Shown: piece after piece, positions 36,986-42,913 of the stretch
Layout: each line of letters starts with the position of its first letter
Position numbering within the stretch: the stretch's first letter is position 1
Sequence record: MN850637.1
From: Escherichia phage warpig
Strand: one strand, 5' to 3'
Length of the DNA stretch: 64,000 nt
The notes under the pieces: generated by a model
The model's database searches: none
What the model was told of the DNA's origin: nothing
What the model saw: the letters and a program-made list of their open reading frames with translations, nothing else
Position numbers and translations under genes: made by a program

Positions 36986-37192
36986 ATGCTTTACAGTCGT
37001 GAATTGATGGTTACAACTAACGTTAACACAAAGGTAAAACGTTTTTACATGCAAATTTGTGGCGTATGGTCTAGAATATCAGAAGCTGACTATTGCAACT
37101 ATGTAGAAACGGCTATAAACTCTAATTGCTACCTTACAAGAAATACAAGAAAGTACATAAGACAGACAGCAATTTACTACTACGATAAATAA
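36986..37192 (+). CDS. small early protein
   Basis: 68-aa ORF with conserved RBS AAACTGGAGAATCTAAAAATG. Confidence 0.5.
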   Translation: MLYSRELMVTTNVNTKVKRFYMQICGVWSRISEADYCNYVETAINSNCYLTRNTRKYIRQTAIYYYDK

Positions 37193-37279
37193 AGTACTTT
37201 ACAAGGGGCTTATAGTTCGATAGAGTAAGCCCCAGATAAAGAGCTTTGCTAACTAACCTTAAACTAGGAGAATCTGAAA
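37193..37279 (+). promoter_or_regulatory. leader cassette type A
   Basis: AAGTACTTTACAAGGGGCTTATAGTTCGATAGAGTAAGCCCC: -35-like TTTACA, 17 bp, -10-like TAGAGT inside GGGGCTTA/TAAGCCCC hairpin, then RBS AAACTAGGAGA. Confidence 0.6.
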
Positions 37280-37660
37280 ATGGCATATCGTGCACCTAAA
37301 TTCATCAACAAAGACAACTTTCGCAACGCACTGGAGAAGTCACTTGATGAAAAATTTAACGGTAAATTGATTATTGTTCACGCATTCAATTTTAAGTATG
37401 ATATTAATGGGAATAAAATCAACCATTACACGGCAACCATGATAGATGGTACACTTTCAAGTGAAAAAGCCGTACTGAATGCACTTGCTGGACGCGGTAA
37501 AAACCTGATAAAATGTGATAAGCGACGTTATCAGGGTGGCGCATATGGTTACGATGATGCTGTTTACCATCTTGAAAACATGGGCTATCAAGTAGAAAAA
37601 GCTGGAGTATCACAAATTATCGGGAGTGATGGTTATGTGACAATTTTCAAAATTAACTAA
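37280..37660 (+). CDS. small early protein
   Basis: 126-aa ORF after type A cassette. Confidence 0.5.
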   Translation: MAYRAPKFINKDNFRNALEKSLDEKFNGKLIIVHAFNFKYDINGNKINHYTATMIDGTLSSEKAVLNALAGRGKNLIKCDKRRYQGGAYGYDDAVYHLENMGYQVEKAGVSQIIGSDGYVTIFKIN

Positions 37661-37749
37661 TAAAGTACTTTACAAGGGGCTTATAGTTCGATAGAGTAAG
37701 CCCCAGATAAAGAGCTTTACCACTAAATCCTAAATTGGAGAACTTAAAA
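37661..37749 (+). promoter_or_regulatory. leader cassette type A
   Basis: Near-identical copy of the 37193 element. Confidence 0.6.
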
Positions 37750-38007
37750 ATGGCTATTATCAAAAACGTTGTAATTACTGCAAAGACTCGTGATGACGCT
37801 CGCGTTATGGCTAAAAAGTTATGCGGAAAAGTGGTTGACAACGGAAAACAAACTGCTGTAAGGTGGGGCGTGAAAGCTGATAAGCAACTAACCTTAAAAC
37901 ATAATTCAAACAACCTTTTTAAAGGTGTAAAATCACTCGGTAAAGTGAACGTTTTTACCAAAAAAGGCTATAAAATGCACTTATCACTAACTGGCAATTT
38001 AATCTGA
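37750..38007 (+). CDS. small early protein
   Basis: 85-aa ORF from ATG after RBS GGAGAACTTAAAA (track ORF starts upstream inside cassette). Confidence 0.5.
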   Translation: MAIIKNVVITAKTRDDARVMAKKLCGKVVDNGKQTAVRWGVKADKQLTLKHNSNNLFKGVKSLGKVNVFTKKGYKMHLSLTGNLI

Positions 38008-38102
38008 TAAAGTACTTTACAAGGGGCTTAAAAGTTGATATCTTAAGCCCCAGATAAAGAGCTTTACCACTAAATCAAGTCCTTAAACTAGGAGATTCAA
38101 AA
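38008..38102 (+). promoter_or_regulatory. leader cassette type A (variant hairpin)
   Basis: AAGTACTTTACAAGGGGCTTAAAAGTTGATATCTTAAGCCCC then RBS. Confidence 0.6.
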
Positions 38103-38615
38103 ATGAAAACTGTAGACGCTACCTTTGAAGTTGTAAAAGAAAAATTTTCCATCGTTTATGAGGCTGTTAATTGCTATGAAGCAAGTCATAATCTTGATAA
38201 TTGGAAGTTTACAGATGACCATCAAGGCGGTGTGACTGTTAAAAATCCTAACTGTCAGCGTAATGATTTTAAATATGCAATCCCTTTACATTACAGCCTT
38301 AAGCAGCTTTCAAGTGACTATGCAAAACAAGGCCGTGAGAATCCATCGAAAGAGGCTTACACGAGCTTACAGAAAGAACTAGAAAGAGATTTAGAGGCTT
38401 CAGAGTATAACCTTGCCGCGAAAGTTGTGGATGCAAACGGTAGCACGGTTTTAGAAAGTTTTTATCTTGGTTACGCTTTCGATTGGTGCTATCGTGACGG
38501 CGATGATTTAGATGACAGGCTAAAAGAGGAAGTGAACAACGCAGACGCAGAATCTGAAGTATTAGAACGCTTGGAAGCATTAAAAGATTCAGTGATGAAT
38601 ATCTTTAAGGACTAA
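38103..38615 (+). CDS. small early protein
   Basis: 170-aa acidic ORF. Confidence 0.5.
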   Translation: MKTVDATFEVVKEKFSIVYEAVNCYEASHNLDNWKFTDDHQGGVTVKNPNCQRNDFKYAIPLHYSLKQLSSDYAKQGRENPSKEAYTSLQKELERDLEASEYNLAAKVVDANGSTVLESFYLGYAFDWCYRDGDDLDDRLKEEVNNADAESEVLERLEALKDSVMNIFKD

Positions 38616-38706
38616 ATAGACCTCTTTACACGGGGCTAACAAGCTGATATGATAGCCCCAGATAAAGAGATTTATCAAATTAACCCTTAAACTAGGAGAT
38701 TCAAAA
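38616..38706 (+). promoter_or_regulatory. leader cassette type A (divergent)
   Basis: CTCTTTACACGGGGCTAACAAGCTGATATGATAGCCCCAGATAAAGAG then RBS. Confidence 0.5.
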
Positions 38707-39003
38707 ATGAAATTATCAAATAAAGTCCGTGAAAATTTAAGCAAGTTACTCAACAAAATTGATTTTATCGAGACATCAAGGAATAGTCATGATGTTATGG
38801 AATGGTTGCACGGCAAAATAAAAGGCCGTCGCGTAGTGATTTGCTTATGGAATAGTTGCAGGGAGTATAAAAAACCTGTATTGCAAGTAAATATTTATGA
38901 CGATACTTTTAAAAGTCCAGTAAAATCTAAAAGTGACTTACTAGATTCTTATGAGATAACTGTAAATGGCAAAGTATCACGTAAAGAGGAAACACCATGT
39001 TAA
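38707..39003 (+). CDS. small early protein
   Basis: 98-aa ORF. Confidence 0.5.
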   Translation: MKLSNKVRENLSKLLNKIDFIETSRNSHDVMEWLHGKIKGRRVVICLWNSCREYKKPVLQVNIYDDTFKSPVKSKSDLLDSYEITVNGKVSRKEETPC

Positions 39004-41182: not shown

Positions 41183-41416
41183 ATGCTTACAACCGTTTAC
41201 CTCATCCTTTCCATCTGTAATGGTCATTCATGCGATTTTAAAGGGCTTGAAGAGTTTACAGGAAGTAAAGAAAATGCTATTCAAGTTTGCCAGATAGCAC
41301 GGCAAGACTATCCCGCAAGTGATGATATACAATGCTACTTTAAGACAGAAGATAAAGACGGCATCTATTTTGACAGCGTTGACGGTCAATATGAAATTAT
41401 CATTGAAAAAGACTAG
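41183..41416 (+). CDS. small early protein
   Basis: 77-aa ORF. Confidence 0.45.
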   Translation: MLTTVYLILSICNGHSCDFKGLEEFTGSKENAIQVCQIARQDYPASDDIQCYFKTEDKDGIYFDSVDGQYEIIIEKD

Positions 41417-41429
41417 ACAAGCCTGATAA

Positions 41430-41506
41430 AAGTCTGTAAATTGTCAATCAACGGGGAGGGAATGACCTTCCCCACTAAATGAAGTCCTAAACTGGAGATT
41501 CTAAAA
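41430..41506 (+). promoter_or_regulatory. leader cassette type B (variant)
   Basis: AACGGGGAGGGAATGACCTTCCCCACTAAATGAAGTCCTAAACTGGAGATTC. Confidence 0.55.
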
Positions 41507-41848
41507 ATGGCTTATGTAACCGTAATTACCGATAAAGCTGGCGCATCTTGGTCAACTCAGGTTAGTGATAAGATGTCGCCTATGCAGTGCCTAAAATACT
41601 TTGAACAGTGGAACAAAGGCGAGGACACAAGCCCCTTTCACGTAATGCAGATTATTCATGTAGACAATGAAGGGAAGAAAACAACTCTGAATAGTGAGTA
41701 CTACGCAAGCCGTTTTGAAACGAGAAGTAAAGCAATGAAGCTCTTACGTGAGGCCGGATATGGTCACATTGCCGCGATAATCTGGGATGACCTTCTAAAA
41801 AGTCAACGTATCAGCTATGTAAAGCCTGAAAAAATATTTATCAGTTAA
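41507..41848 (+). CDS. small early protein
   Basis: 113-aa ORF. Confidence 0.5.
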   Translation: MAYVTVITDKAGASWSTQVSDKMSPMQCLKYFEQWNKGEDTSPFHVMQIIHVDNEGKKTTLNSEYYASRFETRSKAMKLLREAGYGHIAAIIWDDLLKSQRISYVKPEKIFIS

Positions 41849-42002
41849 TCAATAACTTACAAAAAACTTTTAAAAAAGTGTTGACAATACCCCTTGACAT
41901 TGGTAACTTTGTTCGAGGGGGTTTATCTAAAAGGGATTAACTTAAAAGATTCTTTATAGATAAACTTAAAAAATTGCTTGCAATCAGCTATCAAAACAAG
42001 TA

Positions 42003-42068
42003 AATTACTAATCAACGGGAGGGATGACCTCCCCACTAAGTAAAGTCCTTAAACTAGGAGATTCAAAA
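42003..42068 (+). promoter_or_regulatory. leader cassette type B (variant)
   Basis: AACGGGAGGGATGACCTCCCCACTAAGTAAAGTCCTTAAACTAGGAGATTC; two TTGACA boxes lie further upstream (41890-41920). Confidence 0.55.
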
Positions 42069-42599
42069 ATGAACAAGTTCAAAGCCATCAATTACATCCG
42101 CTCAAATAGTGTTATGTCAAAGCCTGTTAAAGACACCTATGAATTCCGTTGTAATGGTGTACACTTTGCAACCATCACCAAATCAGAAAACGGGGCTTAT
42201 TACATTCATCGCCGTAATGTTGCAACCGTTGTAGTCTCTCATTTTATGCAAGCTGTAGCAGAGTTATTACCGCTATTCTTAGAGATTTACTTAGATGAGT
42301 GTAAAAACGTTCACAACCACGTTAAAAACCTTTTAAACAGTTATAAAATGGCTTATGAACGTTCTATCAAGTCCTTAAACAAGTTTTACAACGCACCTGA
42401 AAATACTGTGTCAATAGCCTATGCTGCAAATGGTGGGATGGTAAACTTATCCAATGTGGAAGAAATCGAACTGCATGACTTACGCCCTGAAGGTTATTCT
42501 AAAACCCTCGGTGAAGGTTTATCATTCAATATCAAGAACTTAGAAAAAACTTTAAAAGATATTGAAAAAGATATTGACGAGACAATCAAAAATCTGTAA
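42069..42599 (+). CDS. small early protein
   Basis: 176-aa ORF from ATG after conserved RBS; track ORF at 42024 starts inside the leader. Confidence 0.5.
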   Translation: MNKFKAINYIRSNSVMSKPVKDTYEFRCNGVHFATITKSENGAYYIHRRNVATVVVSHFMQAVAELLPLFLEIYLDECKNVHNHVKNLLNSYKMAYERSIKSLNKFYNAPENTVSIAYAANGGMVNLSNVEEIELHDLRPEGYSKTLGEGLSFNIKNLEKTLKDIEKDIDETIKNL

Positions 42600-42664
42600 A
42601 TTACTAATCAACGGGAGGGATGACCTCCCTACTAAATAAAGTCCTTAAACTAGGAGACTCTAAA
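42600..42664 (+). promoter_or_regulatory. leader cassette type B (variant)
   Basis: AACGGGAGGGATGACCTCCCTACTAAATAAAGTCCTTAAACTAGGAGACTC. Confidence 0.55.
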
Positions 42665-42913
42665 ATGGCAACTATCCGCGCAACTGTTAACGAATTTGGC
42701 TTCTACTCTCTGGATGTTAAATTCGACCTTGTAGGTACTGATAACGCCTTTGAAATGGTGAAAGTTCTTATCAGTCAGACCATCAAAGACTATAATCCTT
42801 CAGATGAGTTCTGGAAAGAAACAAAACAGGAAGTTCTCAAAGAGGGCTATTCATATCACTATTGGGGTGAAAAAATCGTCTCCCTGTACTACGACAAAGA
42901 AGGCACTAACTAA
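42665..42913 (+). CDS. small early protein
   Basis: 82-aa ORF from ATG after conserved RBS. Confidence 0.5.
   Translation: MATIRATVNEFGFYSLDVKFDLVGTDNAFEMVKVLISQTIKDYNPSDEFWKETKQEVLKEGYSYHYWGEKIVSLYYDKEGTN

Follow-up and report, generated by a model that had tools for sequence, protein, structure and literature searches.

The 14 small genes at positions 36986-42913 (plus strand) of the window, by which we mean the whole 64,000-nucleotide stretch analysed, are probably the hyperplastic array of accessory genes in a myovirus of the Felix O1 kind, with a promoter-hairpin-translation-start cassette at nearly every gene. We consider it likely that nearly each small gene is an autonomous, portable expression cassette made up of a sigma-70 promoter of the host type, a hairpin in the RNA and a translation start region that is uniform between cassettes (Table 1). 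The source phage belongs to Felixounavirus and shares 94% identity with phages garuso and Bas63; the array lies directly 5' of the terminal repeat, near the genome end. The proteins are 67-180 aa long (the original prediction gave 49-180 aa for its 14 ORFs) and fell into 14 separate families in protein family clustering, in agreement with the expectation that the coding sequences are unrelated. The ORFs carry a coding signature, with 1525, 804 and 556 substitutions at codon positions 3, 1 and 2, respectively. Leaders are present at 12/14 genes, six of type A, five of type B and one of type C, the last of which, at gene 1 (36986), was missing from an earlier count of 11.

Table 1. Genes, leader elements and terminators of the array, all on the plus (+) strand.
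Feature	Position (+)	Details
Type C cassette, gene 1	36907..36985	TTGACT (36907)-17-TAATAT (36930-36935); hairpin GGGC-aagcaa-GCCC 36947-36960; Shine-Dalgarno GGAG 36973-36976
Gene 1	36986..37192	68 aa, phrog_5293; missing in about half of relatives
Type A element 1	37190..37248	59-nt two-part hairpin; -35 TTTACA (37198) in lower stem; -10 TAGAGT (37221-37226) in apical loop; predicted +1 A37234; first three bases UAA = gene 1 stop codon
Gene 2	37280..37660	126 aa, phrog_4495
Type A element 2	37661..37719	dG -25.2 kcal/mol, z -3.9
Gene 3	37750..38007	85 aa, phrog_5089
Type A element 3	38008..38066	-10 TATCTT, TG upstream
Gene 4	38103..38615	170 aa, phrog_4190; AF2 model pLDDT 89.6 (confident)
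Type A element 4	38616..38675	diverged; lower stem CUCUUUA/UAAAGAG, upper stem GGGGCUA/UAGCCCC, -10 TATGAT
Gene 5	38707..39003	98 aa, phrog_4401
Gene 6	38997..39329	110 aa, phrog_4375; no leader; 7-nt overlap with gene 5; hydrophobic N-terminus
Type B cassette, gene 7	39326..39418	TTGACA-17-TAAATT 39326-39354; hairpin 39365-39385; Shine-Dalgarno context; gene 6 stop inside -35
Gene 7	39419..39691	90 aa, phrog_3436
Type A element 5	39689..39747	
Gene 8	39778..40182	134 aa, phrog_4327
Type B cassette, gene 9	40192..40283	promoter 40192-40220; hairpin 40231-40251
Gene 9	40284..40487	67 aa, phrog_3623
Type A element 6	40485..40543	
Gene 10	40574..41116	180 aa, phrog_3303
Intrinsic terminator, gap between genes 10 and 11	41149..41169	AGCCCCTTGTAGGGGCT+TTTT
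Gene 11	41183..41416	77 aa, phrog_4640; preceded by intrinsic terminator
Type B cassette, gene 12	41414..41506	TAGACA-17-TAAATT 41414-41442; hairpin 41453-41473, 8 bp; leader dG -19.5 kcal/mol
Gene 12	41507..41848	113 aa, phrog_4318
Type B cassette, gene 13	41978..42068	short-stem variant; TTGCAA-17-TAAATT 41978-42006; hairpin GGGAGG-gauga-CCUCCC 42017-42033
Gene 13	42069..42599	176 aa, phrog_4725
Type B cassette, gene 14	42574..42664	TTGACG-17-TAAATT 42574-42602; hairpin 42613-42629; gene 13 stop = TAA of -10
Gene 14	42665..42913	82 aa, phrog_4559
Promoterless hairpin after last gene	42924..42939	GGGGCU-aaau-AGCCCC, then AGAUA; type A stem, minimal loop
Intrinsic terminator closing array	42952..42978	= Felix O1 t23

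A repeat search found leader repeats where they had been predicted, with five type A copies of ~100 nt (70-99% identical) at 37189, 37660, 38007, 39688 and 40484, and type B copies at 39326, 40192, 41414, 41993 and 42589. The sixth type A copy, at 38616, is diverged, falls outside the repeat-search family and was recognised from its sequence. The motif TTTACAAGGGGCTTA, allowing up to three mismatches, had 22 matches versus 2.4 expected by chance, its close forward-strand matches all lie within the array, and the 30-nt type B core had three matches versus none expected. No leaders were found in the other 57 kb of the window, nor in the 23 kb of the genome outside it, the latter checked in garuso.

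In every leader, a predicted promoter of the sigma-70 type, whose spacer is exactly 17 nt, is combined with a GC-rich hairpin and a start region that hardly varies, CCT(T)AAACT(A)GGAGA-N7-9-ATG. The promoter scan found 11 of the 12 leader promoters, with a spacer of 17 nt in each; that of gene 13 was missed by the scan and read by hand. In type A, the -10 at 17 nt from TTTACA keeps TAnnnT in 43/50 distinct cores while the middle bases vary. For type B, the 17-nt spacer of the predicted TTGACA-17-TAAATT stands, but TTGACA itself occurs in only two of the five copies, the others having TAGACA, TTGCAA or TTGACG. The stop codon of the preceding gene is either provided or overlapped by the 5' end of the cassette, so neither neighbouring gene is damaged by a junction there.

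The type A leader folds as a 59-nt two-part hairpin of ~20 bp, with a lower stem of 11-12 bp and a 3x3 internal loop. A hairpin enclosing the -10 had been predicted, but it is much longer than was described, and the two-part fold is new in this analysis. Since the -35 is within the lower stem and the -10 within the loop, the hairpin can form only on read-through RNA. The fold has a dG of -23.7 to -25.2 kcal/mol (z -3.2 to -4.7), and an alignment of 58 distinct type A elements has 97.2% paired cells across the 19 pairs, versus 31-57% for a slid partner. The covariation score is 0.080 versus 0.059 when shuffled, and 0/500 shuffles reach 0.080, although common descent of the elements, and probably gene conversion between them, inflates such tests; 11 of the 19 stem pairs never vary, so the covariation rests on few events, among them one G-C to U-A double change in nine of the 58 aligned sequences. 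With U.G pairs, 9 bp are kept on the plus strand versus 4 bp on the minus strand.

The type B and C hairpins start 2-4 nt downstream of the predicted +1, and at least 10 different stems occupy this one fixed position. Folding was no better than that of shuffles in two of the five type B leaders (z -1.0 and -1.5).

Based on these features, we propose that host RNA polymerase would initiate at each cassette, so that a gene would be expressed wherever it is inserted. Type B and C leaders would place a 5'-terminal stem-loop on the mRNA, shielding it against decay, while the type A hairpin on read-through RNA is most likely an RNase III-type processing and insulating site like those of T7. The T7 RNase III sites R0.3-R1.1 are found between early genes, in early mRNA made by host RNA polymerase, and are irregular hairpins of ~20 bp with upper and lower stems split by an internal loop; they are cut on the 3' side of the loop, so that the upstream message keeps a 3' hairpin that stabilises it. 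The type A element resembles them in being an intercistronic hairpin of ~20 bp with two stems and an internal loop, and its cleavage is putative. If it were cut on the 3' side of its internal loop, the upstream mRNA would end in a protective 3' hairpin, and the downstream mRNA would receive a 5' end nearly equal to that from the embedded promoter. In contrast, the T7 sites contain no promoter, and the T7 early genes share three upstream promoters.

Alternatively, the leader hairpins could be transcription terminators or attenuators that insulate the cassettes from upstream transcription, and not processing or stability elements. The stem-loops of the RB49 PeSLs (promoter-early stem-loops), likewise GGGG...CCCC, acted as terminators in reporter assays (PMC2839356), the array has two true terminators with similar GC-rich stems, and a type A-like hairpin is followed by a terminator after the last gene. 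We nonetheless regard this as unlikely, because none of the 12 leader hairpins has a U-tract behind it and the plus-strand terminator scan gave only 36506, 41149 and 42952. The type A hairpin encloses the -10 and has a long AU-rich lower stem that a terminator does not need, and the type B hairpin is downstream of the +1, where termination would abort the cassette's own transcripts.

It is quite improbable that the inverted repeats are DNA operators at which a dimeric regulator, of the phage or of the host, would switch the array off once the early phase is over, even though TAAAGTACTTTA is a perfect palindrome over the -35, GGGGCTTA/TAAGCCCC flank the -10, Pope et al. preferred a DNA-binding role for the inverted repeats of ESAS in cluster K phages (PMC3203893), and the garuso genome has, outside the array, an annotated 'transcriptional regulatory protein'. 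Half of the distinct type A cores have T opposite G, which keeps the RNA pair on the plus strand but breaks the DNA symmetry, and the double change noted above (G to T plus C to A in nine distinct sequences) breaks the own palindrome of each flank and keeps the pairing between flanks. The promoterless copy at 42924 retains the stem with a loop of 4 nt, so spacing is not conserved. Between the centres of the two flank palindromes there are 47 bp, or ~4.5 helical turns. The stems of types B and C also differ in sequence at their one fixed position. It had been suggested that the hairpins may be processing sites, attenuators or regulator sites, and of these, a DNA operator fits less well than a role at the RNA level, in processing or stability.

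The leaders are conserved across three genera of Ounavirinae, and Michonne (Mooglevirus), SUSP1 and SUSP2 have an equal architecture. Comparing 21 related arrays from these genera, we found that they differ by the presence or absence, replacement or reordering of single genes or small blocks. Of 116 alignment break ends in the 21 relatives, 102 are within leaders, which account for 22% of the region, although the 116 are not independent events and represent ~13 distinct ones. One gene can be found behind type A, B or C leaders depending on the phage, as the idea of portable, swappable cassettes for unrelated small genes had anticipated. Gene 9 and family x2 exchange order in some relatives with the leader order unchanged, the Michonne array has one empty cassette, and Felix O1 lacks genes 9-11, with the junction between two B leaders. 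Gene order is otherwise largely syntenic, so the shuffling is mostly gain and loss and not free permutation. Gain, loss, replacement and reordering between phages thus occur at cassettes, which is compatible with homologous recombination between copies, as proposed for T4-type PeSLs. We doubt strongly that the leaders are instead ordinary promoter and ribosome-site regions homogenised by gene conversion, with hairpins and indel coincidence as by-products of the need for a deletion sparing expression of both neighbours to end in intergenic DNA: selection against gene disruption alone would enrich intergenic junctions, gene order is largely conserved, and most stem positions are invariant and therefore uninformative, but junction alignments overlap by 20-93 nt within repeats, as expected of homologous exchange, leaders are still recognisable in other genera where the array proteins are 42-83% identical, hairpins persist at fixed positions despite different sequences, and the extended type A helix is retained at 97% pairing.

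The closest known system is the PeSL cassettes of T4-like phages (Arbiol et al. 2010, PMC2839356; Comeau et al. 2014, PMC4122927). Both are small repeated intergenic units with a sigma-70-type promoter (N17), a stem-loop with a comparable GC-rich stem (GGGG...CCCC in PeSLs), a Shine-Dalgarno sequence and ATG; both lie upstream of small genes that have no known function and cluster in hyperplastic regions, and in both, indels, replacements and displacements among close relatives coincide with the units. However, our array is from Ounavirinae and, read by eye, has no sequence relationship to the published PeSL consensus. The PeSL stem-loop is upstream of the -35 and is a terminator, whereas that of the array lacks a U-tract and encloses the -10 in type A or follows the +1 in types B and C, and type A has the extra lower stem. 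The start-associated sequences (SAS/ESAS) of cluster K mycobacteriophages (Pope et al. 2011, PMC3203893) and a 26-bp repeat at eight genes of Citrobacter phage Mordin (Guan et al. 2015, PMC4611695) share with the array leaders an asymmetric conserved Shine-Dalgarno repeat a few bases 5' of start codons, a restriction to a subset of non-structural genes, and inverted repeats just upstream in some copies. In the array leaders the Mordin repeat, CCAACAATCCTAAACTGGAGAATCTA, forms the 3' end, and the Mordin paper makes no mention of promoters, hairpins or a link to gene turnover. SAS differ in sequence (GGGATAGGAGCCC) and host, and their authors found no support for RNA pairing of the ESAS arms, whereas the array hairpins have such support. 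Rfam has no family for comparison with the Felix O1-type element. In Bacillus phage SPO1, the host-takeover module (Stewart et al. in 1998) is reported to pack many small genes of unknown function densely into the terminal-repeat region, where numerous strong host-type early promoters and strong ribosome sites drive them; the array resembles it in its many small genes, its host-type promoters and its place near the terminal repeat. The SPO1 module is inside the terminal redundancy and arranged in operons, whereas the array is directly before the repeat with a unit at nearly every gene; to our knowledge, neither a promoter-hairpin unit per gene nor cassette turnover has been described for SPO1.

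Array genes are transcribed in Felix O1, where RT-PCR shows a 5-min peak for ORFs 16, 20, 21 and 22 and a 25-min peak for ORFs 17, 19 and 23 (PMC3185647), so the description of the genes as early is documented in part; this timing showed no correspondence with leader type. No protein had been recognisable, which is true at the sequence level but not entirely so at the fold level, as the structure model of gene 10 has a predicted ADP-ribosyltransferase-like fold with conserved H5-G-T, Y36/Y38 and E80. A structural search with the gene 4 model gave no informative match. The SUSP1 homologues of array genes were all 'Not Fit' on a laboratory host, and array genes are dispensable in SUSP1. Together with the predicted gene 10 fold, this gives some support to a possible role in host takeover or anti-defence, as originally suggested. 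The gene 14 homologue, Felix O1 gp23, was detected in virions by mass spectrometry. Gene 6 appears to be translationally coupled to gene 5, judging by the ORF overlap. We also noted a further candidate promoter 5' of the gene 13 cassette (TTGACA-17-TAACTT, 41883-41911), and the terminator at 41149..41169 is also a potential 5' hairpin of a weak candidate promoter (TTTAAA-17-TATAAA) just upstream.

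We found cassettes, units of promoter, hairpin and Shine-Dalgarno site, before 12 of the 14 array genes, and leader motif counts are well above shuffled expectation. The original prediction had placed leaders of two families before 11 of the genes; both were found in place, and a third type that it had missed, type C, precedes gene 1. Type A comprises five copies of ~100 nt that are 70-99% identical plus a diverged sixth copy at 38616, and the five type B copies were found by repeat search. A promoter scan returned promoters with a 17-nt spacer in 11 of the 12 leaders, with that of gene 13 read by hand, so we predict that the leaders carry repeated intergenic sigma-70-like promoters with an N17 spacer. 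Every leader type ends in CCT(T)AAACT(A)GGAGA-N7-9-ATG (12/12), in which the UCC(U)/(A)GGA bases could pair in a 3-4-bp hairpin over the Shine-Dalgarno site; of the two variants of this start region, one has an inserted U matched by an inserted A. Stop codons of upstream genes overlap the 5' ends of the cassettes: those of genes 1, 7 and 9 are the UAA in the lower stem of type A, that of gene 13 is the TAA of the type B -10, that of gene 6 is the TGA inside TTGACA, and that of gene 11 is the TAG of a TAGACA -35. The genes with no cassette of their own are gene 6, which overlaps gene 5 and is presumably translationally coupled to it, and gene 11, which lies after an intrinsic terminator. The leader of gene 13 is unusually long (220 nt), is kept in other genera, and contains an extra candidate promoter and an inverted repeat.

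A 7-kb query matched 261 phage records, nearly all of them Felixounavirus and relatives, with Escherichia phages garuso and JohannRWettstein (Bas63) at the top (94% identity each). The phage is thus a Felix O1-like myovirus (Felixounavirus, Ounavirinae) and not T4-like. The 14 consecutive ORFs encode, in order, proteins of 68, 126, 85, 170, 98, 110, 90, 134, 67, 180, 77, 113, 176 and 82 aa, which fall into 14 separate protein families, as expected from the earlier statement that the coding sequences are unrelated. The depositors annotated all of these genes as hypothetical and marked at most two leaders, as generic promoters. The array is the tail of a long plus-strand gene block; it starts 3' of the terminator behind a macro-domain gene and closes with an intrinsic terminator followed by a 1.6-kb non-coding stretch. 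Salmonella phage UAB_69 has an annotated direct terminal repeat of 618 bp, and its counterpart in the window lies beyond the array, which makes the array the final coding block before one physical DNA end. Cassette motifs are confined to the array, with none in the rest of the 64-kb window and none in the remaining 23 kb (garuso as proxy). When we searched IMG/VR for the 14-mer GCCCCAGATAAAGA, it was multi-copy solely in 84-90 kb contigs of Ounavirinae size; single matches in other contigs are best explained by chance.

Features of the array and its surroundings (window coordinates)
Feature	Position	Strand	Remarks
Macro-domain gene	35691-36476		261 aa; PF01661, E 1.5e-7
Intrinsic terminator	36506-36547	+	terminator scan
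Four copies of TCATTTYMRAAHYGTGCAG	36550-36725		
Array, genes 1 to 14	36986-42913	+	
Gene 10	40574-41116	+	
Intrinsic terminator	41149-41169	+	terminator scan
Gene 13 leader	41849-42068		
Extra candidate promoter	41883-41911		TTGACA-17-TAACTT
Inverted repeat	41893-41923		CCCC...GGGG
Gene 14	42665-42913	+	
Type A stem copy	42924-42939		3' of gene 14; no promoter, 4-nt loop
Intrinsic terminator	42952-42978	+	terminator scan
Non-coding gap	42980-44560		between converging + and - gene blocks; contains the terminal repeat
Terminal repeat	~43378-43978		from the UAB_69 annotation
YTGTTAR cluster	43379-44456	nearly all +	

Using the macro-domain gene, we gathered 29 related loci, including those of Citrobacter phage Michonne (Mooglevirus) and Escherichia phages SUSP1 and SUSP2. 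The same cassettes are retained in these other genera despite protein identity of just 42-83%, which is the conservation in relatives that the original prediction called for. Gene order is broadly syntenic, with single genes or small blocks gained or lost: genes 1, 3, 4, 5, 9, 13 and 14 are variable, and some relatives carry extra protein families absent from the window array (x1, x2, x9, x11, x12, x14 and x27). In collinear BLAST chains between the window and 21 relatives, 102 of 116 break ends fall in leaders, although leaders cover just 22% of the region; the 116 ends represent ~13 distinct events and so are not independent. Flanking alignments at the breaks overlap by 20-93 nt within the leader repeat, as expected for homologous exchange. 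Depending on the phage, gene 2 is found behind a type A, B or C leader; genes 9, 10 and 12, like families x2 and x11, are found behind A or B. In two phages family x2 and gene 9 stand in opposite order, yet the leaders run B-A-A in both. Felix O1 has only nine of the array genes, and its junction between genes 8 and 12 is one B leader. In Michonne, a tandem duplication of the gene 3 family lies beside an empty cassette, in which the Shine-Dalgarno site and ATG are fused straight to the next type A leader, and this looks like a footprint of cassette-level recombination. The comparison supports the proposal of a modular system in which genes are swapped at their leaders.

The type A promoter consists of TTTACA, a 17-nt spacer and a -10 with a variable middle (TAGAGT, TATCTT, TATGAT, TAAAGT) that keeps TAnnnT in 43 of 50 distinct cores. 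The predicted type A hairpin is present, but when the whole intergenic RNA is folded it is far longer than the 8-bp version first described. The lower stem pairs UAAAGU.ACUUUA with UAAAG.AGCUUUA at 10-12 of 12 positions; above it come an internal loop of 3x3 nt (CAA/AGA), an upper stem of 9 bp (GGGGCUUAU/GUAAGCCCC) and an apical loop of 11 nt, giving a fold of 59 nt with dG -23.7 to -25.2 kcal/mol and z -3.2 to -4.7. The lower stem holds the -35 in its 5' arm, and the apical loop holds the -10. The predicted start in the first type A copy, A37234, is the first base on the 3' side of the internal loop, so a transcript from this promoter cannot form the hairpin, which could form only in read-through RNA from upstream. 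The form of T7-type RNase III hairpins, intercistronic with about two helical turns and an internal loop, is seen in type A only, where 11-12 bp and 9 bp are separated by the 3x3 loop; types B and C, at 4-8 bp, fall short of it. A permissive Rfam search of 36000-45000 gave no match.

In an alignment of 58 distinct type A elements, the 19 pairs of the helix are formed in 97.2% of cells, compared with 31-57% after sliding the partner. Covariation scores 0.080, against 0.059 for shuffled alignments, a value reached by 0 of 500 shuffles, with 11 of the 19 pairs invariant and the copies sharing ancestry; a first count on the upper stem alone was not significant. One rival, which we consider unlikely, is that the leaders are homogenised intergenic regions and the hairpins incidental. 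Another is that the inverted repeats are DNA operators; the wobble pairs and the covariation between flanks speak against it. One lower-stem pair changes from G-C to U-A in 9 of the 58 sequences, a double change that breaks each flank's own palindrome and keeps the pairing between flanks. About half of the distinct upper stems contain U.G, which keeps 9 bp on the plus strand and only 4 bp on the minus strand. The flank-to-flank double change and the strand asymmetry together favor a plus-strand RNA helix over an operator.

In type B, the promoter ends in TAAATT and a GC-rich hairpin of 6-8 bp follows 10-11 nt downstream, while type C has TTGACT-17-TAATAT and then GGGC-aagcaa-GCCC. With +1 predicted 7-8 nt after the -10, type B and C stems, which start 10-11 nt after the -10, would begin 2-4 nt after the mRNA 5' end. 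Stabilizing 5'-terminal stem-loops of the ompA type (Emory, Bouvet and Belasco 1992) reportedly have the hairpin within ~0-4 unpaired nt of the mRNA 5' end. We found no consistent extended helices around the type B and C leaders. Because the stem lengths differ, MAFFT with RNAalifold recovered nothing beyond the outer GGG/CCC pairs, which are invariant, and the small Shine-Dalgarno hairpin, and stems were instead scored by per-sequence stem extraction. At least 10 different stems occupy the one position, with changes that include C:G to U:A and G.U to A:U, and intact hairpins average 5.6 bp against 4.8 bp in chimeric controls, a weak margin. That the leader hairpins are terminators or attenuators seems unlikely, given that none of the 12 is a GC-rich hairpin directly followed by a U-tract and that a type B hairpin of this kind would abort its cassette's own transcripts. 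We also discarded the idea of a hairpin promoter read by a virion RNA polymerase, as in N4: no RNA polymerase is encoded by Felix O1, and neither stems nor loops fit.

The working that we consider most likely is as follows. Host RNA polymerase would initiate at each cassette, and type B and C hairpins would shield the mRNA 5' end. On read-through RNA, the type A hairpin would be cut by RNase III in the manner of T7 early R sites, releasing an upstream message with a 3' hairpin and a downstream message with the same 5' end as that from the embedded promoter. Recombination between the repeated units would shift genes while the stop codon, promoter and ribosome site stay intact. Joined into one reading, the type A 59 nt would be a sigma-70 promoter as DNA and an RNase III-type hairpin as read-through RNA, with processed and primary transcripts sharing one 5' end (A37234 and its equivalents), insulating each cassette, while the repeated homology drives accessory-gene turnover across Ounavirinae and gene 10 encodes a new family of phage ADP-ribosyltransferase. 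We regard this combined reading as rather unlikely to hold in full. If it did, each cassette would yield the same mRNA whatever is upstream, with built-in insulation that makes the genes plug-and-play.

The closest described system is PeSL, the promoter-early stem-loop cassettes of T4-like phages. PeSL units likewise have a sigma-70 promoter with N17 spacer and a GGGG...CCCC stem-loop (PMC2839356, PMC4122927), a Shine-Dalgarno site and downstream ATG at the 3' end, and hyperplastic regions where relatives differ by indels or replacements at the units. However, the PeSL stem-loop sits just upstream of the promoter and acts as a terminator for upstream transcription, whereas in the array the type A hairpin has the -10 within it and the hairpins of types B and C come after the predicted +1. 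PeSL carriers are T4-like myoviruses and the phage studied here belongs to Ounavirinae; because of this difference in lineage and the stem-loop lying inside or after the promoter, the array is not a PeSL member. In Citrobacter phage Mordin, the 3' 26 bp of the leader were noted in 2015 as 'reminiscent of start-associated sequences', role unknown (PMC4611695). Those sequences (SAS/ESAS, of cluster K mycobacteriophages) are alike in form only, as asymmetric repeats with a Shine-Dalgarno site 3-8 nt before some non-structural gene starts. The SAS consensus GGGATAGGAGCCC is absent from the array leaders, so SAS/ESAS is a second analogue, to which the array does not belong. According to the Felix O1 genome paper, the control of transcription is unknown (PMC3185647). 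In the literature we found no transcription-start, transcriptome or transcript-end maps for Felix O1-like phages or Ounavirinae, and no description in Felix O1-like phages of promoter-hairpin cassettes, the long type A helix or a link to gene turnover. The most original part is the proposed promoter inside a processing hairpin, which, if it works as suggested, would be a neat way to express a gene independently of genomic context. The array also shows that PeSL-type regulatory cassettes occur outside T4-like phages.

Typing, biocontrol and therapy of Salmonella and E. coli make use of Felix O1-like phages. The array offers a testable picture of how they express and exchange accessory genes. 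Host-specific functions, among them a putative ADP-ribosyltransferase and a small virion protein, are most likely to be found in the genome segment that the cassettes delimit. It is relevant to finding host-takeover or anti-defence genes and to engineering: new genes could be inserted at the leaders, which already supply the signals for expression.

Compared with Michonne and SUSP1, third codon positions carry 1525 substitutions, first positions 804 and second positions 556, indicating that all array genes are truly coding, as the original prediction required. They were also described as unrecognizable, and at the sequence level this is borne out: none of the 14 proteins has a significant Pfam match, all 14 fall in PHROGs families of 'unknown function', and PDB sequence searches with five of the proteins and one profile gave no match. 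Gene 4 has a confident structure model with no informative structural match. Gene 10, from its predicted fold, looks like an ADP-ribosyltransferase. For this reason the macro-domain gene just upstream of the array, annotated as 'phosphatase' in relatives, is notable; gene 10 is encoded ~4 kb downstream of it.

By RT-PCR in Felix O1, transcripts of array homologues were detected; the peak came at 5 min for ORFs 16, 20, 21 and 22 but only at 25 min for ORFs 17, 19 and 23 (PMC3185647); we saw no link between leader type and this timing. A transcriptome-wide dCas13d knock-down of SUSP1 on DH10B scored every array homologue (gp095-gp111) as 'Not Fit' (PMC11879866 supplement), which marks these genes as dispensable there. 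For Bas63, a knockout screen reports that the small genes at ~66-80 kb vary in essentiality (PMC11482910). The gene 14 homologue Felix O1 gp23 (9.7 kDa) was detected in purified virions by mass spectrometry, so the gene 14 product may be a small virion-borne protein injected with the DNA. In Felix O1 (NC_005282), the annotated start of ORF19 (locus 2984-3301) falls within the type B hairpin (GGGAATG); translation more probably begins, as for gene 7 of the window, at the ATG that follows the conserved Shine-Dalgarno context.

Two further repeats flank the array. The four copies of TCATTTYMRAAHYGTGCAG (chance expectation 0.07) fill part of the stretch from the macro-domain gene's terminator to the first promoter of the array and are kept in Michonne and SUSP1. 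On the other side, 28 of the 87 YTGTTAR matches in the window are clustered in the non-coding gap, often 10-11 nt apart, and may be sites for a packaging or replication protein.
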